DNA from: a virus
IMG/VR virus record: IMGVR_UViG_3300050119_000104
Span: 32,001-96,000 of that record
Length of the DNA stretch: 64,000 bases
Reading direction: 5' to 3' (one strand)
Position numbers and translations under genes: made by a program. The notes under the pieces were generated by a model. That model was not told where the DNA came from and searched no databases. It saw only the letters and a program-made list of their open reading frames with translations. Below are positions 13,748 through 64,000 of the stretch, piece by piece. Numbering within the stretch: position 1 is the stretch's first letter; each line of letters begins with the position of its first letter.

Positions 13748-14185
13748 ATGATCGATGTAGATTTGAATGATCATAGTGGCGGACCGCATTGGCTCACAAA
13801 AGCAGGCGGTCATGACCACGCCAAAAATATCCGCGCCAAGCACCGCGCTGCGTGGGTAGCGAAGCATCCGCGCGTGCCTAATCCCGTGCGCCCGGAGACG
13901 ATGGCGAAGTTGGAAGCTGTCAGCGCCTATGCGCAGAAAGTTCACGCTGCCAAAGTCCTGGCTCGAATAACCAAAACCTGGAATACCGCGCTCGCGATCA
14001 TCGATAAATCAGAGCTTGTATTGCGCGACGTGATCGAGCGCGGGCTTTTGAATACCGCCGGACTTGATCATCAGCGCTACAATGATGCGATGCGGGTCGC
14101 TGACCGACTCATGAAAAAGATCACACGCATTCGGACCAAAGCCATCAAAGCTGCCTTCCGCCTTTTGCGGGATCAATCCTATTAA
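13748..14185 (+). CDS. hypothetical protein, possibly an N-terminal MuF/gp7-like fragment
   Basis: Helical C-terminal half resembles MuF N-termini; its stop lies at the IS boundary. Confidence 0.45.
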   Translation: MIDVDLNDHSGGPHWLTKAGGHDHAKNIRAKHRAAWVAKHPRVPNPVRPETMAKLEAVSAYAQKVHAAKVLARITKTWNTALAIIDKSELVLRDVIERGLLNTAGLDHQRYNDAMRVADRLMKKITRIRTKAIKAAFRLLRDQSY

Positions 14186-14198
14186 CGTCTTCCCCGGT

Positions 14199-15275
14199 CT
14201 AAAGGCCAGGGATTTCCACTACCGGAGGCGGACGTTCCCGCCCGACACGGAGAATGTTTAGCGCTGCGTTCACATCCCGATCGTGAGAAGTGCCGCAGTC
14301 TGAACAAACCCAATGTCTTATTTCAAGCGCGCCCATACCTTTCGGACTGCTGTCGGGAATACACCCGCAGCACGAGCACGTCTGAGAAGTCCATCGCTCG
14401 TCGGCTTCTACATACCGAGCCCCGTGCCTGCTGGCTTTGTAGCGGAGCTGATTGCGGAACGTCGTCCATCCTGCATCGAGTACGGATTTAGCCATCCGCG
14501 TCTTTACAAGTTTGGCGGCGCTCACATTGCCGACAACGATAAGCCGATTTTGGCGAACTATCGAAGTAGTCGCCTTGTGGTGTTGATCCTTTCGGACGTT
14601 CGCAATCTTTGCGTGGATGGCTTTGACGCGACACTTGTTGCCGGCGCGCTGTTGAACGGCGAGCGCGACCTCGTACTTGCGATAGTGCTGAAGCGCCGGA
14701 ACAGTGTTGCCATTGCTGCACGTCGCCAGCGTCCTCAATCCAAGGTCGATCCCTATCTCTCCGTTGCCGGTCGGCAGGTCATCGGTAACCTCACACTGGA
14801 AACAGACATACCAGCGCCCGCGAGCGTCCTGAGTAAAGCAGCCGGCCTTGATGTCGTCGGGAATATCCCGCGATTTCCAGAAGTGGAATTTCCGTTTGAG
14901 GTAGACGACATGTGCGCCTTCGAGACGTACAGCGCGCTTGATAAATGGCAGCCAACCGAGTGCGCGCTTCGACCCACCGCTGGCGCGAAAGCGCGGGGCG
15001 TGGCGGGCGGCGTTGCGCGAGATTACAAACTGCTTGCAAATCTGACTGACCGTATCGGAGTGCAGCCCAAGTTCCGCAGCACATCCAGTAGTCAGCTTGA
15101 CAAGATCGAAGTGCGACGGCCAACGACGCTTAGGCGCGCCGTCCCTGTAATTGGACATCGCCCTGCGCTGTATCTCGCAACAGTAATTCCACACGAAGTT
15201 GCACGCCCGCGAGTGCCGCCCGAGGTACTTACCGACCATTGCGTCTTTGATGCGGAACTTATATGTAAGGATCAT
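14199..15275 (-). CDS. tnpB: TnpB nuclease, RuvC-II-rearranged type
   Basis: GIDLG, IVVGNV (no Glu), DERWTSQTCSCCG, HDRDVNAALNI. Confidence 0.95.
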   Translation of the reverse strand: MILTYKFRIKDAMVGKYLGRHSRACNFVWNYCCEIQRRAMSNYRDGAPKRRWPSHFDLVKLTTGCAAELGLHSDTVSQICKQFVISRNAARHAPRFRASGGSKRALGWLPFIKRAVRLEGAHVVYLKRKFHFWKSRDIPDDIKAGCFTQDARGRWYVCFQCEVTDDLPTGNGEIGIDLGLRTLATCSNGNTVPALQHYRKYEVALAVQQRAGNKCRVKAIHAKIANVRKDQHHKATTSIVRQNRLIVVGNVSAAKLVKTRMAKSVLDAGWTTFRNQLRYKASRHGARYVEADERWTSQTCSCCGCIPDSSPKGMGALEIRHWVCSDCGTSHDRDVNAALNILRVGRERPPPVVEIPGL

Positions 15276-15304
15276 ACGCAGGAAGTATTGGTCGGTGGTC
15301 AAAA

Positions 15305-15715
15305 ATGCAAGGCTTCAGGCGCGAACGACATAGCGTTTCCCGGCTCACGGTCCACTTGGTCTGCGTCACGAAATACCGACGCAAAATCCTCGATGGCCGG
15401 GCGCTTGACTGGCTCAAGGCGCACTTTGCCAAGGTTTGCCAGACAATGGATTGTGTACTTCTCGCCTGCGACGGTGAGAACGACCATGTCCATTTGCTGG
15501 TCGAGTACCCACCGAAACACTCGATCTCTGTCTTGGTTAATGCCATCAAGGGTACGTCCAGCCGGCTACTGCGCGCCGAAAGGCCAGACGTCGCCAAGCG
15601 CTACTGGAAGGGTGTTCTGTGGTCCCCGGCCTATTTTGCCGCCTCGACCGGCGGAGCCACGCTTGAAACGGTTAAGCGGTACGTCGAACAGCAGCGCGCC
15701 TCCTCCTCGCCCTGA
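15305..15715 (+). CDS. tnpA: IS200/IS605 Y1 (HUH) transposase
   Basis: HLVCVTKYRR, DHVHLL HUH motif, LWSPAYF, VKRYVEQQ catalytic Tyr. Confidence 0.95.
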   Translation: MQGFRRERHSVSRLTVHLVCVTKYRRKILDGRALDWLKAHFAKVCQTMDCVLLACDGENDHVHLLVEYPPKHSISVLVNAIKGTSSRLLRAERPDVAKRYWKGVLWSPAYFAASTGGATLETVKRYVEQQRASSSP

Positions 15716-15745
15716 AGGGCAAGGTTTCCGGCTTGGAGATTTACG

Positions 15746-17338
15746 ATGACCGAATTCGACGAGGGCGCGCATCCACGTGGCAAGGGCGGCAAGTTCGCGC
15801 TCAAAGGTAGCGCGGGTGGTCATGAAGGACAGATCGCGACTGCCATCGCAACAAGTGTGGACGCGGACACCGATCAATATAAACAGCCGAGCGTCGCAGC
15901 AATGGCGGGCGACGGCGCAACCGATCCGAAAGTCATCGCGGCTACTGAGAAAAATTTCGAACATGATATCGGGCTATTCCACGATGCTTCGATCTATCCA
16001 AATTTTCGATCAGATGAATTGAAAGGCACTGTGCGCGAGCAAGCTACCGCCATCGTCAAGAACCTGACGAGCAATCTCGTGTTCCTCTATAATCAGGCGA
16101 GCGACGAAGTAAAGCACGCTGGGAGTATCTGGTACGAGAGCGCGCACAAGGTTGGTGAGAAAGCCACCGCTGATAGCGTAAATGCGGACTTCCCGAAGGG
16201 GCTACCACAGATCGGCGTATTTGGCACAATCGCAATTTTGTCGCCGAACAAAGAATGGGACCAGAACGTCGATATGGCTCGCCGTGTCGTGGACACTTAT
16301 GCGACGAAACAACATTATCAGTTCGACGAGGCTATGCGAGCGCAATTCGCGAAAACTTGGGACGCCAATAAAGCCGGTAGTTCTGGAAAGCCAGACCCGG
16401 ACTCGCAGAAGTACAAAGACAAGGTGAAGCTTTTTGAGTCGTATCGCCGGGACGTGGAGGGTAAAAAGCTTGGTGAGTTATCCAGTCCATTGCTCAAGGC
16501 AGTATGGATCAGAACCTATGATGAGGCGCACAATCCGCAAACATACCACACGTTTTTGCCTAACGGCGATATTGGCCCGCTCGCGCGCAATCTTCCAAAT
16601 AGGAAATTCCCGGAGGGTGCACCCACGACGATGGTGTGGCAATCGACCAAGTTCGTTGCTAATGCTGTTCGTTGTTTAGAGTCCAATGGCGACCGACAAA
16701 TCATCTCAGATAATATGGGCGGCAACCATAAAGTGCGATCATTTTTCAACAACATCCTAGACCCCCATTCACCAAACCAAGACACAACCATTGACACGCA
16801 CCAAGTCGGTGCGGCATTGTTACGGGGACTCGGTGCAAAGTCGGCTCCAGTGACCCAAAACTTTGGGTTGGCACCGCCGAAAGGCGTCGAAGCTGCGAGC
16901 GGATCGGAGGTCACTGGCCTATCCGGTACCTACGGCGTTTACGCCGACGCCACACGCGCCGCCGCGAAAGAAACGGGCGTGCCCTACGCTCAGGTGATGC
17001 AAGCGATCACTTGGGTCACGAAACGAAACGTACTCGGGGAGACTTCTGACGCAGCCAACGCGCTGATAGAAAAAGCCTGGGGCCGCTATCACGACGGCCG
17101 ACTGACGCAACCGCAGACGCAAAAGTTGGTTTGGAATATCGCTATGCAAGATGTGGCGCGCCAAGCCGTGGCGCGTAAAACGAAACTCGATTGGGATTTA
17201 GCAGCGCCTGCTCGGGTTGCGGCACGAGCGGTCGCAAGAGCGCAAACGGACTCGGACAAGGCCGCGCGAGCGACTGCGCGAGCGAAGAAGAAAGTGAAGA
17301 GTGCTACACAAGCAAAGAAAGTGAAGTTGCTATTATGA
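15746..17338 (+). CDS. 530-aa head-region protein; FDExxHPR motif, helical HhH-glycosylase-like (DUF7178-like) domain
   Basis: WYESAH, IAILSP..EW..N, KVRSFFNNI.DP, TIDTH, MQAITW motifs recalled from this family. Confidence 0.5.
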   Translation: MTEFDEGAHPRGKGGKFALKGSAGGHEGQIATAIATSVDADTDQYKQPSVAAMAGDGATDPKVIAATEKNFEHDIGLFHDASIYPNFRSDELKGTVREQATAIVKNLTSNLVFLYNQASDEVKHAGSIWYESAHKVGEKATADSVNADFPKGLPQIGVFGTIAILSPNKEWDQNVDMARRVVDTYATKQHYQFDEAMRAQFAKTWDANKAGSSGKPDPDSQKYKDKVKLFESYRRDVEGKKLGELSSPLLKAVWIRTYDEAHNPQTYHTFLPNGDIGPLARNLPNRKFPEGAPTTMVWQSTKFVANAVRCLESNGDRQIISDNMGGNHKVRSFFNNILDPHSPNQDTTIDTHQVGAALLRGLGAKSAPVTQNFGLAPPKGVEAASGSEVTGLSGTYGVYADATRAAAKETGVPYAQVMQAITWVTKRNVLGETSDAANALIEKAWGRYHDGRLTQPQTQKLVWNIAMQDVARQAVARKTKLDWDLAAPARVAARAVARAQTDSDKAARATARAKKKVKSATQAKKVKLLL

Positions 17339-50869: not shown

Positions 50870-50945
50870 GGGGCCATAGCTCAGTTGGTAGAGCGCCTGT
50901 TTTGCAAGCAGGATGTCGGTGGTTCAAATCCATCTGGCTCCACCA
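50870..50945 (+). tRNA. tRNA-Ala(TGC)
   Basis: Cloverleaf, G3:U70 pair, GGTTCAAATC T-arm, encoded CCA. Confidence 0.95.
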
Positions 50946-50971
50946 AATTTAACGAAGTGAGTAAACATCAA

Positions 50972-51214
50972 ATGAAAAACCCAAAGCTTGTCTATGTCGA
51001 GTTCTTGGATCATGGATCGTCAATTGGTTGGCGTTCCGATAACGAGGTTGATATTGAGACTCCCGCCATAAACCTTTGTTTTGCAGTCGGCTGGATTGTT
51101 GCCGAAAACAAAAAAGTGCTGTGTCTTGGTTCATTTCGCTCCGACAATAAGGACTCGCAGGTTCGGCAGTACATTCTAAAAAGTTGCATTACTAAACGGC
51201 GTCAGTTGCGATGA
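50972..51214 (+). CDS. hypothetical phage protein
   Basis: LVYVEFLDH...GW...C.AVGW pattern. Confidence 0.65.
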   Translation: MKNPKLVYVEFLDHGSSIGWRSDNEVDIETPAINLCFAVGWIVAENKKVLCLGSFRSDNKDSQVRQYILKSCITKRRQLR

Positions 51215-51293
51215 CAAACCTAACCCCTAAATCAACCTTGCATCTGCCTCCCCCCTATGCTAAAGACCTGCCCTTACGGGAGGGCTATACCCC

Positions 51294-51441
51294 ATGACAA
51301 TGCGCTATTTATTTTGGACGATCATCCTTCTCCAGTGGCTACAGCGGCATCAATCATGTCTACCTAGGCGGCAGTCTGATCCTCTACGTCCTCATCGGAT
51401 TGCTCGGATGGAAAACCTACGGTAAGCCCATCGAGGGCTAA
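51294..51441 (+). pseudogene. frameshifted small membrane protein
   Basis: MTMRYLFWTIILL in one frame; GGSLILYVLIGLLGWKTYGKPIEG in another. Confidence 0.45.
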
Positions 51442-51527
51442 TCGAAAATCGAGCGTCCCCCGCTCGATTTTGTACACAAACTTCGGACAACGCATATGAC
51501 TTCGGTGTACCAGCAACAATGCATCGT

Positions 51528-51601
51528 GGCCCTGTCGTTTAATGGCAGGACGCGGCGCTTTGACCGCCGAGACGTGAGGTCGAGACTCACCGGGGCTTCC
51601 A
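51528..51601 (+). tRNA. tRNA-Gln(TTG), atypical
   Basis: Cloverleaf, CT-TTG-AC loop, CCA end; T-loop reads GTCGAGA. Confidence 0.75.
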
Positions 51602-51643
51602 ACTACGGCTTTACGCCGCCCGCGCCAGCGCGGTAGGGCGCAT

Positions 51644-51719
51644 CAGGGCGTAGCTCAGTTGGTAGAGTACCGGACCCGGACTCCGGGGGTCGTCAGTTCA
51701 AGTCTGACCGCCCTGACTA
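51644..51719 (+). tRNA. tRNA-Pro(CGG), atypical
   Basis: CAGGGCG/CGCCCTG acceptor stem; loop CC-CGG-AC (C33); 3' end CTA. Confidence 0.8.
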
Positions 51720-52970: not shown

Positions 52971-54188
52971 CTATGCCGCCACTTTGAAGTGTGTTTCATT
53001 TTCTTCCTGCTTCACAGAGCGGCGTTTCACGCGGGGCTTTCGCACCGCGCCAGAGCGCTGTTCTCCACAGGCTGTAACCGCAAAGCTCGCGGCCATCTTC
53101 TCAAGATTTCGTGCGGCATTCAGGTCGCGATCATGCGACGCGCCGCAGTCTTCGCAGGTCCAGGAGCGGACATCTAGGGGCATCGAGTCGTGTATCACGC
53201 CGCATTCGGAACAAGTCTTGCTCGACGGATAGAACCGATCAGCGGTAACGATCGTCGCACCGTACCATTTCGCCTTGTATTCAAGCATTCGTCGGAACTC
53301 ACCAAATCCGGCATCGGATATTGAACGCGCCAGATGGCCATTCCGGACCATGCCTTTGACATGCAGGTCCTCGATGCCGATCCAGTCGAACTCGTGAACG
53401 AGGCGATGTGTCAGCTTGTGGTGGGCGTCGCACCGGACATTGACAATGCGAACGTGTACCTTCGCCAGACGCGCCTTGGCTTTCCGCCAATTGACGCTGT
53501 GCCGGACCTTCCGGGCGAGCGCCTTGTTGGCGCGCCGGAGCCTCACCAGCGCGTTCTTATGGGCCTTGGGGCCGGCGACCATCTCACCAGTCGAGAGTGC
53601 CGCCAGCGTCGTCACGCCGAGATCAATGCCGACTACGCGAGGAATTACAGGTCGCTCGATCGGCTGGATATCAGTGTCGACCAGGACTGACACGAACCAG
53701 CGCCCGGCCGACTTGCTGATCGTTGCGCGCTTGAGTACGCCATCGAAGCGTACAGCCTCTCGCATCTTGATCCAGCCGATCACCGGCAGCTTGATACGCT
53801 TGCCTTCGGCGCGGAATGTCCCGGCTTCATTAGCGGCGCAGAACGAGGGTGTGGCCTTCGCTCTGCTTTTGAATCTGGGATAGCGGCCGTTGTGAGTGTT
53901 CGATTTGAAGTTGCGGAAGGCGATGCCAAGATCAATAATAGCCTCCTGCACGACACACTTGCCAACTTCACAGGCCCAAGGGAATTTTTCGCGTTTGGTG
54001 GCGTTGAACTGCTTCCGCAAACTGATTTCGGAGGGGAACGGCGTGCCGAAGAAGTACCAGTTTTGAGCCTGCTCTTTCCACGCACCCAGCGCCCAATTGT
54101 ACGCGAAGCGCGCAGTCCCAGCGGCACGGGCAAGATATAGCTCTTGCTCCGCATTAGGGTTCAGCGCGACGCGGTGGGCAACTAGCAC
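52971..54188 (-). CDS. tnpB: TnpB nuclease (canonical D-E-D)
   Basis: N-terminal HTH (GTARFAYNWAL), GIDLG, IGIEDL, YPSSKTCS.CG, HDRDLNAARN. Confidence 0.95.
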   Translation of the reverse strand: MLVAHRVALNPNAEQELYLARAAGTARFAYNWALGAWKEQAQNWYFFGTPFPSEISLRKQFNATKREKFPWACEVGKCVVQEAIIDLGIAFRNFKSNTHNGRYPRFKSRAKATPSFCAANEAGTFRAEGKRIKLPVIGWIKMREAVRFDGVLKRATISKSAGRWFVSVLVDTDIQPIERPVIPRVVGIDLGVTTLAALSTGEMVAGPKAHKNALVRLRRANKALARKVRHSVNWRKAKARLAKVHVRIVNVRCDAHHKLTHRLVHEFDWIGIEDLHVKGMVRNGHLARSISDAGFGEFRRMLEYKAKWYGATIVTADRFYPSSKTCSECGVIHDSMPLDVRSWTCEDCGASHDRDLNAARNLEKMAASFAVTACGEQRSGAVRKPRVKRRSVKQEENETHFKVAA

Positions 54189-60231: not shown

Positions 60232-60711
60232 CTACCAACCTTTTGCCGTTCTCAGAAGCACGTCGGCGAGTGATAGTGTCGGATCACAGACAGAGAGGAT
60301 TTCAAGAACCGACTCCGGCGCGGTGATGTGTTCATATAAGTTCCCCGGAACAAGATATAGACGAGCGGCGCGTCCCTCCCCCACCTGTAGCAGAACCCAA
60401 TTGATCCTGCAACCGGCTTGTGAGCGGTCCCGATGCCAGTCCCGTTGCGAGTCCCGGCACTTAGGATGGATCGGGGTTGTCGGCCTCACCGGGCGATCTT
60501 CGGATTTTAATTCGAGCCAAATTTGGAGCCCATTAATACAACCTTCCACGTCCGGGTGGCCTGTGCCGACGGCGTTTTCGAGGCGCTGTAGATCGACGAG
60601 GTGCCCGGTAGCCTTGAGCGCAGGAATGGCAGTGTCCCGGATACGTTTCCACAGCGCACTCTCCCGCGCCATCTTTATTCGACCGGCGGCTGCTTCCGCT
60701 TGCGAGGCCAT
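60232..60711 (-). CDS. PD-(D/E)XK nuclease (VRR-NUC / resolvase-like)
   Basis: ESALW..., RLEN..G.GHPDV.GC..G..IWLELK. Confidence 0.8.
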   Translation of the reverse strand: MASQAEAAAGRIKMARESALWKRIRDTAIPALKATGHLVDLQRLENAVGTGHPDVEGCINGLQIWLELKSEDRPVRPTTPIHPKCRDSQRDWHRDRSQAGCRINWVLLQVGEGRAARLYLVPGNLYEHITAPESVLEILSVCDPTLSLADVLLRTAKGW

Positions 60712-61271
60712 CCTGGTTCAAAGACAAACTTGTCGGAGACGGGCTTGTTTTCCCGCTTCGCCGCTTCGCCGACCGCAGTGTAGGGTGGGACGGCATTCGG
60801 CATGCGCGCGGTGATCTCTTTGATTTTCTCGTTCATGTCCTCCTGCCATCCGCTCGGTAGCGGCGGCGGTCGGTCATCCACGAAATTTTTCATGAACATC
60901 GCGTCGCGGAGTACCACGAGAGAAGCGAGAGCTTTACCGATGTGGCTGATACCTGAAGCTGGGTCGATATCCTCGCCCTCGAACCACGCGGTCAGATGGC
61001 GCATGGTCGCGTCATAATAGACGCTCGCGCGCACGCCAATGACTCGATAGTTATGCCGTCCATATTTGCGGGCACCTTCAAACATGCCAACTCCGATCTC
61101 GGCAATGACGGCGGATGATACCGTCGAGAACGGCACTTTGAGAATGCCGAGCACGTCTTTCGGATTGGAAGGTTTCGCAGTTGGATTGTTGGCAACGATT
61201 TCCGTATTGAGTACGTCATCGGGATTCGTGCTTATCCGGTTGACACCCACAACCTCTTTATCTTGGGTCAT
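60675..61271 (-). CDS. dATP/dGTP diphosphohydrolase-like (DUF5664) protein
   Basis: NPKD..G..KVP.S.V.......G.GM.EGARKYGRHNYR..GVRASVYYDA.MRHL..W..GED.D..SG..H. Confidence 0.85.
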   Translation of the reverse strand: MTQDKEVVGVNRISTNPDDVLNTEIVANNPTAKPSNPKDVLGILKVPFSTVSSAVIAEIGVGMFEGARKYGRHNYRVIGVRASVYYDATMRHLTAWFEGEDIDPASGISHIGKALASLVVLRDAMFMKNFVDDRPPPLPSGWQEDMNEKIKEITARMPNAVPPYTAVGEAAKRENKPVSDKFVFEPGWPRKRKQPPVE

Positions 61272-61420
61272 GCGGCCCTCCGGCTTTCGTCTCCACGACG
61301 CTGAGCACTCAGCGCGAGAATGTTCCGTGCGGCATTTGTGTCACGGTCATGGACCGCTCCGCATCCGCCGCACATCCATTCCCTTATTCCAAGCTCTGCG
61401 ATACCTTTAGGGCCACAACG
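61240..61420 (-). ncRNA. omega/reRNA overlapping the tnpB 3' end (approximate)
   Basis: CCCTAAAGGT, GGAATAAGG and GCGCTGAGTGCTCAGCGT hairpin; TnpB RNAs are known to overlap the 3' CDS. Confidence 0.65.
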
Positions 61421-62323
61421 CGCACCGCACGTTGAACAGAGTTGGGAAGTCCATCGCTCATCGGCCTCAATGTACGTCGCCCCGTGCCTGCTGGCCTTGT
61501 AGCGGAGCGCCGACCGGAACGAGGACCAAGAGGCGTCGAGCACGGATTTAGCCATCCGTGTTCGGGCCATCTGCGCCGCGTTCACATTGCCGACGACGAT
61601 CAGGCGATTGTCCGCAGCGATGCGGGCCGTCGCCTTATGGATGTGATCTTTCCGGGCATTCGCGATCTTGGCATGAATAGCCTTGGTGCGCTTGCGGTTA
61701 CCGGCGCGCTGCGCCGTGGCAAGTGCCCGTTCGTATTGGCGGTAGTGGCGGAGCGCGGGGACCGAAGTGCCATCGCTGCACGCCGCAAGGGTTTTCAGCC
61801 CCAAATCAATGCCGATTTCGCCGTTGCCTATAGGCAAATCGGCAACATCGACGTGGAAGCACACGTACCAGCGTCCGCGTGCATCCTCGACGAACGCTCC
61901 ACCTTTTGCGGTTGGCGGTAATGGCCGTCGCGCTTGCCAGAAATGGTAGACCTTGCCGAGATAGGTGATCGTGTTGGCTGATACCTGACGGCTCTGACCC
62001 TGAAACGGTATCCAGCCCAAAGCGCGCGATCCGCGCCAGCGCAATGAGCGCTTTGCCTTGTCGCGACTCCGCGCATACTGCTCGCACACCGAGCCGACCG
62101 TCTGCGCATGAATGCCCAAGTCCTTCGACGTGCCTTTGGTCATCCGTTGTAGGTCGAAATGCGACGGCCATTTGCGCTTCGGCGACCCATCGCGGTAGCG
62201 CGCCTCGATGTCATGCTGTACCTCGTTGCAGTAATTCCAGACGACGTTGCACGCTTTCGCATGCCGCCGAAGGGTCTTTTTGGCGGAGCGGTCCTTGATG
62301 CGATAGCGGTAAGTCAAGATCAT
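61268..62323 (-). CDS. tnpB: TnpB nuclease, RuvC-II-rearranged type; paralog of 14199-15275
   Basis: GIDLG, IVVGNV, DERWTSQLCSTCG, HDRDTNAARNI. Confidence 0.95.
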   Translation of the reverse strand: MILTYRYRIKDRSAKKTLRRHAKACNVVWNYCNEVQHDIEARYRDGSPKRKWPSHFDLQRMTKGTSKDLGIHAQTVGSVCEQYARSRDKAKRSLRWRGSRALGWIPFQGQSRQVSANTITYLGKVYHFWQARRPLPPTAKGGAFVEDARGRWYVCFHVDVADLPIGNGEIGIDLGLKTLAACSDGTSVPALRHYRQYERALATAQRAGNRKRTKAIHAKIANARKDHIHKATARIAADNRLIVVGNVNAAQMARTRMAKSVLDASWSSFRSALRYKASRHGATYIEADERWTSQLCSTCGARCGPKGIAELGIREWMCGGCGAVHDRDTNAARNILALSAQRRGDESRRAA

Positions 62324-62410
62324 CTGGGTTTAGTACCTGTGGGTGTCAACCGGATAAGCATGAACTCAATGAGCTTTTTGATCGGCTTGCGCCGGTGAAG
62401 CTCGCTAAGA

Positions 62411-63813: not shown

Positions 63814-64000
63814 CATGCTTATCCGGTTGACGCCCAATGCTTGACAGCTACCTGGAATTTTGCTTTTCTCCGTTCCGACAATCGCCTCCGATTGATTGGG
63901 GGTATCTAAAGACCATGTTTCCGTCGTCTGTTCGCGCCGAAAGGTAGAACGGCGATGAATAAGGTCCATTTCGGTGGATCGCGCAGAGTGCTCTGCGTCC
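63814..64000 (+). mobile_element. second copy of the omega-RNA MITE, truncated by the window edge
   Basis: Matches 11-197 over 187 nt with one mismatch (46 C vs 63849 T); different upstream flank. Confidence 0.92.

Follow-up and report, generated by a model that had tools for sequence, protein, structure and literature searches.

A TnpB with a rearranged RuvC-II site as probable cargo of a non-autonomous IS1595-family transposon in a bacteriophage

We analyzed a 64,000-nucleotide stretch (hereafter, the window) that comprises bases 32001–96000 of a 117,459-bp phage genome, IMG/VR virus record IMGVR_UViG_3300050119_000104, and focused on tnpB2, a gene for a 351-aa TnpB protein that lies between terminal inverted repeats (TIRs). 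Coordinates are those of the window unless given as "genome" coordinates, which refer to the whole record. We propose, with considerable confidence, that tnpB2 and its predicted omega RNA are the cargo of a non-autonomous DDE transposon of the IS1595 family, here called E2a, that this TnpB lineage made one old exit from a Y1 transposon, and that the 3' end of the RNA was rebuilt from the right TIR of the new carrier. The proposal draws on the anatomy of the element, its family membership, the mobility of the unit, a covariation-based RNA fold and a phylogeny, all of which are shown in this analysis.

Anatomy of E2a and its TIR family

E2a and its main parts are located as follows.

61227–62362, minus strand: E2a, a non-autonomous IS1595-type element of 1,136 bp carrying tnpB2 and its omega RNA
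62338–62362, no strand: left TIR of E2a, upstream of tnpB2, tip CATGCTTATCCGG..., located by repeat search and alignment of the ends of related elements (the MITEs described below)
61227–61251, no strand: right TIR of E2a, downstream of tnpB2, where the gene strand ends ...CCGGATAAGCACG; also the 3' end of the predicted omega-RNA scaffold
61268–62323, minus strand: tnpB2 coding sequence, 351 aa, RuvC-II-rearranged, with N246 at the canonical position and E289 as the alternative Glu

The inverted repeats around tnpB2 (61225–61251 and 62338–62364) are 27 nt long and 96% complementary, and a 21-nt core of the TIR occurs 5 times in the window against an expectation of 0. The tnpB2 open reading frame (ORF) fills the space between the TIRs except for 14 nt on the left, up to the start codon, and 17 nt on the other side, which therefore leave no room for the end hairpins of an IS605 element or for a tnpA gene. 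On this point our analysis bears out an earlier reading of the window from its letters alone (the sequence-only reading), which had placed the gene between TIRs and without the IS605 end hairpin. A second copy of E2a (genome 116344–117459) showed 0 mismatches over 1,117 bp, and the flanks of the two identical copies diverge exactly at the TIR tip.

In the whole phage the same TIR core is present 28 times, for the most part in inverted pairs ~240 bp apart. These include at least eight miniature inverted-repeat transposable elements (MITEs) of ~240 bp, of which the eight intact ones are 97–99.6% identical to each other, have the ends CATGCTTATCC...GGATAAGCACG, and are flanked by perfect 8-bp target duplications in five of the eight cases. 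Two MITEs fall at the edges of the window.

11–252, plus strand: MITE of 242 bp, 8-bp duplication CAACAAAG, omega-RNA 3' module kept
63814–64000, plus strand: MITE running off the window (genome 95814–96054), duplication AAGAGACC

An autonomous element with the same TIR tips lies outside the window (genome 8172–10421), where it interrupts a phage gene and is flanked by the duplication ATCGGGAT (genome 8164–8171 and 10422–10429). Its transposase (genome 8212–9255) matched the Pfam domain DDE_Tnp_IS1595 (1e-34) together with an IS1595 Zn ribbon, and scored 190 bits against the NCBIfam IS1595 model, for which the cut-off is 75. E2a shares its TIRs with this element, the common tip sequence being CATGCTTATCCGGTT, after which one end of the autonomous copy continues with GAC; a DDE transposase with a Zn ribbon and an ISXO2-like domain is present in trans, and not inside E2a itself. 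Another protein of the phage, TnpB3, is 57% identical to TnpB2 and is encoded between the same TIRs at the same spacing. The left TIR tip of the TnpB3 element contains an inserted MITE (L029, outside the window, genome 15472–15715), whose target duplication, GAAGGCTT, includes the first bases of the TIR of the TnpB3 element; the MITEs therefore moved after the arrival of the TnpB3 unit.

The TIR family extends well beyond this genome. The core was found in more than 115 IMG/VR stretches, nearly all of which extend to the full tip, and ~45 collected loci, a few of them bacterial, have IS1595 transposases 40–95% identical to that of the phage. Perfect 8-bp duplications flank 74 distinct TIR pairs that span 207–2,563 bp, and thus the same ends enclose diverse cargo. 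Ten distinct loci have tnpB enclosed by both TIRs at a constant spacing, and seven more have it beside a right TIR only. In phage contig L033 an element with the same boundaries is 94.7% identical to E2a, against 70–75% identity in the other genes, which indicates that the unit moves between phage lineages. Perfect target duplications flank one TnpB-bearing element (L288) and one internal-deletion derivative (L251). In a bacterial metagenome-assembled genome (MAG), a 378-bp element with a perfect duplication has between its TIRs a TnpB3-type gene reduced to its first 53 and its last 49 codons. Searching bacterial genomes with a 15-nt TIR pattern, which proved too short, gave 120 matches, mostly due to chance, of which only ~20 extend to the full TIR. 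One MAG carries a 91%-identical TnpB2, and no relative was detected at E ≤ 1e-20 in 300 sampled genomes of the order to which that MAG belongs. The nearest relatives of TnpB2 are phage TnpBs, the closest among deposited phages being 44% identical.

These patterns bear on two other accounts of the element. If the TIRs were unrelated neighbours, a solo (IS1341-type) tnpB would simply lie between two MITE halves; the same TIRs do bound many gene-less MITEs in this genome, and E2a has no target duplication. We regard this as very improbable, given that identity between the two copies stops exactly at the TIR tips, that the same fixed-spacing architecture recurs in 10 loci whose TnpBs are only 55–70% identical, that the TIR tip covaries with a loop of the omega RNA (see below), and that L288 and L251 have target duplications. 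It is still harder to credit that E2a was moved in trans by a Y1 TnpA instead of a DDE enzyme. Such a TnpA is encoded in the same genome, but E2a has neither subterminal hairpins nor the conserved TCAT at its left end, and members of its family are flanked by 8-bp target duplications of a kind that Y1 transposases do not generate.

The rearranged catalytic site

TnpB2 has a paralog in the window, TnpB1, with which it aligns end to end, as the sequence-only reading had stated; the identity is 58% across 349 residues (E = 7e-154). Both proteins matched the Pfam families OrfB_IS605 and Cas12f1-like_TNB and the NCBIfam model guided_TnpB, for which TnpB2 scored 213 bits against a cut-off of 100. 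We took the catalytic residues of ISDra2 TnpB (8EXA/8H1J) as the reference. ISDra2 D191 aligns to D173 of TnpB2 (in GIDLG) and D361 to D328, the Asp of HDRDTNAARNI, while E278 aligns to N246, inside the motif IVVGNVN. TnpB2 has the RuvC-I Asp, the RuvC-III Asp and the CxxC...CxxC zinc finger within a TnpB fold. The canonical RuvC-II Glu, whose place is where strand beta-4 ends, is absent, and relatives have N or D at this position. D173, E289 (the Glu of ADERWTSQ) and D328 show no variation in 47 relatives, and the zinc-finger residues C296, C299, C318 and C321 are likewise invariant in this set. In an AlphaFold2 model of TnpB2 (predicted local distance difference test score 88), strand 283–288 (beta-5) leads directly into E289; the best Foldseek matches for the model were the ISFba1 and ISDra2 TnpBs (template modelling score, TM, 0.72–0.74), with Fanzor2 ranked third.

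RuvC-II-rearranged (RIIr) TnpBs (PMC10691335) have the canonical Glu replaced and a conserved alternative Glu placed after beta-5 so that it faces the active site. TnpB2 would fit this description by its replaced Glu and by the invariant E289 directly after beta-5. The sequence-only reading had pointed to IVVGNV in place of the RuvC-II Glu and to a Glu in DERWTS downstream, and had assigned the arrangement to a type already described; the alignment of N246 with ISDra2 E278, the invariance of E289 and the published RIIr type agree with it.

We infer from these residues that TnpB2 would be an active nuclease working through E289. A TnpB2 that is no longer a nuclease, and that acts as an RNA-guided binder or regulator or is a decaying passenger, would fit the replacement of the canonical Glu by Asn, the inactivated and exapted TnpBs known from PMC10691335, and the absence of a signal for a target-adjacent motif (TAM) at insertion sites. 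We nonetheless consider it improbable: D173, E289 and D328 do not vary over the 47 sequences, full-length ORFs are retained across a diverse mobile clade, and section 8 of PMC10691335 predicts that the same catalytic rearrangement is active in RIIr branches.

The IS605 element of TnpB1

TnpB1 belongs to a transposon of a different kind.

14183–15745, minus strand: IS605-type element, ends approximate, conservation stopping there in 8–12 relatives
14199–15275, minus strand: tnpB1 coding sequence, 358 aa, catalytic site rearranged as in TnpB2
15305–15715, plus strand: Y1 tnpA (IS200/IS605 transposase; Pfam Y1_Tnp 4.9e-41, NCBIfam transpos_IS200)

The element is a true member of IS200/IS605, with a Y1 TnpA, a hairpin at the left end and TCAT 5' of that end. 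The tnpA gene is oriented divergently from tnpB1, and just past its stop codon lies the left (tnpA-side) hairpin (~15705–15728), which has an 8-bp stem and is conserved in relatives. Conservation on the tnpA side extends, in 12 related loci, as far as TCAT, which is followed by a variable stretch and the conserved hairpin. On the right (tnpB) side it terminates in ...GAAGACGTTA, and the right end ...GACGTTA is conserved. The earlier placement of TnpB1 in a hairpin-ended IS605 element with TnpA is therefore upheld by the Y1_Tnp match and the conserved hairpin, as is the view that the two paralogs occupy different transposon chassis, Y1/IS605 in one case and, in the other, a DDE transposon with TIRs and, in family members, 8-bp duplications.

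The TCAT before the left end (15746–15749) corresponds, on the opposite strand, to the ATGA with which the next phage gene starts, and the element abuts this start exactly. Stop/start overlaps, which occur commonly between phage genes, may be what the IS605 lineage of TnpB1 targets. A 520-bp element with the same TIRs as E2a and a 131-aa ORF interrupts a Y1 tnpA in another phage contig (L046 5707–6226, and also L097), so the two transposon types also collide directly.

Phylogeny and direction of the carrier change

Of the 80 relatives from viral contigs that we compared, 10 distinct ones are flanked by both TIRs, seven have a right TIR alone, a divergent Y1 TnpA accompanies 17, and the others have neither. 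All TIR-linked TnpBs formed one clade (Shimodaira–Hasegawa-like approximate likelihood ratio test, 93–97) that had no Y1-linked member, and a single change suffices to explain the association with TIRs or Y1 on the tree. This clade has 23–26 representatives, mutually 55–70% identical, on many unrelated phage contigs, and no TnpA was found within 2.5 kb of tnpB in any of its loci. When the tree was rooted with five outgroups, the TIR clade was nested, and the lineages that branch off as its successive sisters were Y1-linked, as was one of the outgroups (phage PIS 136; backbone supports 82–99 in a quick tree). The nesting favours one old switch from a Y1 to an IS1595 carrier and makes this direction, which the sequence-only reading had also proposed, the likely one. 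Rooting with the phage's canonical TnpB4 alone had given a branch of 4.6 changes per site and was replaced by the five outgroups.

In the rooted tree TnpB1 falls in a neighbouring Y1-linked clade, with another Y1-linked branch (L361) between it and the TIR clade. The presence of both carriers in one genome, with proteins 58% identical, could be taken to mean a recent switch in this phage with the IS605 element of TnpB1 as donor, but we find this most unlikely. TnpB1 is no closer to TnpB2 than are the TIR-borne TnpBs of other phages; its nearest kin (82–84% identical) are all Y1-linked, whereas those of TnpB2 (69–96%) are all TIR-borne. The suggestion that this genome preserves a snapshot of the switch, with TnpB1 as the parent of TnpB2, was accordingly abandoned: the TIR-borne TnpBs are a diverse and widespread clade, their predicted omega RNA is already rebuilt around the TIR, and L361 stands between the supposed parent and offspring. 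The phage hosts two established lineages side by side. The sequence-only reading had also named an outcome that would undermine it, namely that TnpB2 clusters with ordinary IS605 TnpBs and that the TIRs are unrelated neighbours; we found that TnpB2 clusters with TIR-bounded TnpBs and that the TIRs belong to the unit.

The omega RNA and the right TIR

The predicted omega RNA of TnpB2 has the following parts.

61227–61324, minus strand: predicted omega-RNA 3' module, comprising stem-loop 1 (SL1), stem-loop 2 (SL2), stem 3 and a tail
61298–61315, minus strand: SL1, loop GUGCU at 61304–61308
61287–61298, minus strand: SL2, a 4-bp tetraloop hairpin
Minus strand: stem 3, GCCGG pairing with CCGG of the right TIR
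61228–61232, minus strand: tail AGCAC, pairing with the SL1 loop
61207–61226, minus strand: predicted guide segment in the flank right after the right end, placed by analogy with IS605 TnpB and by the position of the last pseudoknot base

Both the TIR clade and the Y1 clade share SL1, SL2, the third stem and the tail, downstream of the RuvC-III codons. In the TIR clade, CCGG of the TIR supplies the 3' strand of stem 3, and the tail is made of five bases, those directly preceding the last G of the TIR tip. In 19 sequences, 98.2% of the cells in the helices were paired, compared with 38–43% with slid partners; the pseudoknot helix was 100% paired, with changes on both sides in four of its five pairs, and the observed pairing was reached in 0 of 5000 shuffles. 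TnpB2 has GUGCU/AGCAC, and covariants in its relatives include GCGUC/GACGC, GCGUU/AACGC and GCACU/GGUGC. Four helices, including the pseudoknot, are supported by covariation, and the predicted RNA overlaps the 3' end of tnpB2 and ends at the right end of the element. In a search of Rfam, neither omega RNA matched any family, and only three tRNAs were found.

The Y1-clade pseudoknot, AACGU/ACGUU, covarying to AACAU/AUGUU, also ends at the right end. With either carrier, the predicted scaffold thus finishes at the tip of the transposon, and the neighbouring DNA should serve as the guide. Autonomous elements read CATG at each tip. In the RNA-bearing elements the right tip is CACG or a variant that covaries; judging from these tips, CATG probably gave way there to CACG and other variants that fit the RNA.

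Points against the proposal, and the junctions of E2a

Several observations weigh against our reading of E2a. No element was found with both a DDE gene and tnpB, and we therefore infer that mobilization occurs in trans. E2a has no 8-bp target duplication, its flanks being TCGGGATT and AACTCAAT, and such duplications were found at one of nine distinct TnpB-bearing insertions vs 63 of 109 (58%) other TIR pairs (p ~0.006); either the junctions of TnpB-bearing copies were remodelled, or these copies often use another spreading route. The junctions of E2a look adapted to the host genes, and the second copy of E2a lies at the contig end, where population heterogeneity or assembly could be its source. 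The root of the tree relies on distant outgroups, and a single outgroup put the root, unsupported, inside the TIR clade. Finally, no TAM could be read from the insertion sites, with no consensus at the left flanks of TnpB-bearing copies, so that the homing logic set out below is unproven. A T at position -2 before the duplication was present at 57% of 148 ends, and the oriented left side showed no enrichment of it (9 of 12, p = 0.16); we rejected it as a TAM and ascribe it to a symmetric target preference of the transposase.

Beside the right end of E2a lies a gene whose start is tied to the element.

60675–61271, minus strand: flanking ORF with a dATP/dGTP diphosphohydrolase N domain (PF18909, 3e-20)

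The tnpB2 stop codon overlaps an ATG (as ATGA) inside E2a, and the frame opened there reads out through the right TIR (MTQDKEVVGVNRIS...). Its first 14 codons cross the TIR and continue in frame into the diphosphohydrolase-like gene, for which the ATGA overlap provides the sole good start codon. At the identical second copy (genome 116300–116390) the TIR-crossing frame stops in a further ATGA, where it overlaps the gene that follows, and the same ATG start and frame recur in several members of the TIR clade. The TIR-crossing frame resembles a built-in device for restarting translation in interrupted phage genes. No empty site for E2a was found among relatives of the flanking diphosphohydrolase gene, all of which are at most 63% identical. 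Domains of this dATP/dGTP diphosphohydrolase type are found in phages that replace adenine; a PurZ-like adenylosuccinate synthetase was not found in the whole 117-kb record, and there is therefore no sign of a 2-aminoadenine genome in this phage.

The right flank of E2a (61219–61226) is ATCGGGAT(T), the octamer that is duplicated at the autonomous copy, and related duplications occur at other loci (ATCTGGAT, ATATGGAT and ATCCAAAT). These shared octamers suggest that this sub-lineage of the insertion sequence prefers ATNNGGAT as its target.

Overall the phage has five tnpB genes of four kinds, encoding TnpB2, its identical copy, TnpB3, TnpB1 and TnpB4. No adjacent TnpA or TIR was seen for the last of these, and a cluster of tRNA genes is also present in the window.

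52971–54188, minus strand: tnpB4, 405 aa, with the canonical RuvC-II motif IGIEDL (NCBIfam IS200_TnpB, 339 bits)
50870–51716, plus strand: cluster of three tRNA genes (Rfam tRNA, 48–72 bits)

Proposed mechanism

Under the IS1595 proposal, E2a would most likely be moved by an IS1595 transposase supplied in trans, and the action of such a DDE enzyme on TIR units accounts for the 8-bp duplications. A TnpB clade with a rearranged RuvC-II site would have left its ancestral Y1/IS605 carrier once, long ago, and the 3' end of its omega RNA would have been rebuilt, with stem 3 and the closing pseudoknot formed by the right TIR itself. A scaffold closed by the right TIR would thus stop where the transposon stops, and each insertion should, as in IS605, supply a new guide from the DNA next to it. 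By analogy with IS605 TnpBs, TnpB2 would be expressed from the unit and the omega RNA transcribed through the right TIR into the flank, and the complex would cut flank-matching DNA beside a TAM, for example in the uninterrupted allele of a co-infecting genome. The payoff may be retention, or homing between phage genomes.

A more far-reaching version, which we offer tentatively and on balance doubt as a whole, is that the 25-nt TIR is read twice, as DNA, where it would be the binding end for the IS1595 transposase, and as RNA, where it would form stem 3 and the pseudoknot. Whenever a TnpB unit or a gene-less MITE makes a DDE-driven move, the phage-borne nuclease would be re-armed with a new guide, and the TnpB-bearing copies would also home between co-infecting phages in a guide-dependent manner that leaves no duplication. 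If this is true, TnpB copies would spread as homing endonucleases do.

Relation to known systems

DDE-associated TnpBs with inverted ends, solo TnpBs, and rearranged RuvC-II sites are already known from Altae-Tran et al. 2023 (PMC10691335), who describe branches DDE-1 to DDE-6, with solo TnpBs in the same inverted ends. E2a resembles these branches in having a prokaryotic or viral TnpB between symmetrical inverted repeats and a tnpB 3' end within 250 bp of the transposon end, in its solo copies that are presumably moved in trans, and in its catalytic site, which is rearranged in many of them. Unlike in the branches as described there, the transposon belongs to IS1595 and no element carries both genes, the TIR tip is part of the predicted RNA pseudoknot, and guide-scaffold MITEs occur in a phage. 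The DDE partner families named in the consulted text are IS630 in PMC10691335 and ISL2, IS630 and IS1031 in a 2026 review (PMC13565253). IS1595 is not among them, and one of DDE-1 to DDE-5 could still be IS1595. A full-text literature search for IS1595 together with TnpB returned nothing relevant, and no IS1595 element with tnpB or omega-RNA cargo. E2a extends this picture to a further DDE family and to a phage, with a TIR that forms part of the predicted guide RNA and with guide-scaffold MITEs.

TnpB2 shares with the IS200/IS605 TnpB of ISDra2 (8EXA, 8H1J) the same fold (TM 0.74), an omega RNA that overlaps the 3' end of the gene, and, as predicted, a pseudoknot that closes the scaffold and a guide that starts at the right end. 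It differs in that its element has TIRs and, in the family, target duplications in place of Y1 TnpA and end hairpins, and in that its RuvC-II Glu has moved to E289. Compared with the IS1595 family, the partner transposase has the expected N-terminal Zn ribbon and ISXO2-like DDE domain, and the elements have the TIRs, 8-bp duplications and passenger genes, but an IS1595 element with tnpB or omega RNA as cargo turned up neither in the literature search nor in the consulted papers, and the right tip is here altered from CATG to CACG and variants.

The sequence-only reading had drawn a parallel with the capture of Fanzors by DDE transposons. Fanzor1 proteins in eukaryotic DDE transposons (Bao and Jurka 2013, PMC3627910; PMC10530073) likewise have a relocated RuvC-II Glu and carriers from several DDE superfamilies with TIRs and target-site duplications. 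Fanzors are, however, larger proteins of eukaryotes and giant viruses and form a different clade, whereas TnpB2 is a 351-aa bacteriophage protein. The parallel is fair as an analogy and not as membership, and the prokaryotic DDE-associated TnpB branches of PMC10691335 are the closer precedent.

Implications

The system bears on a question raised in the 2026 review (PMC13565253), of what use an RNA-guided nuclease is to a transposon whose excision already leaves a break. Both carriers, the partner transposase and guide-only MITEs are present in one 117-kb phage, which makes the change of carrier testable, and dozens of natural variants with compensatory changes tell the requirements of the transposase apart from those of the RNA. 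The compact 351-aa proteins, predicted nucleases with a relocated catalytic Glu, may also interest builders of genome editors. More broadly, the TIR-borne clade would be a well-populated prokaryotic example of a TnpB that exchanged one carrier, a single-strand Y1 transposon, for another, a cut-and-paste DDE transposon. Such a change of carrier is the step that is usually invoked for the origin of Fanzors.

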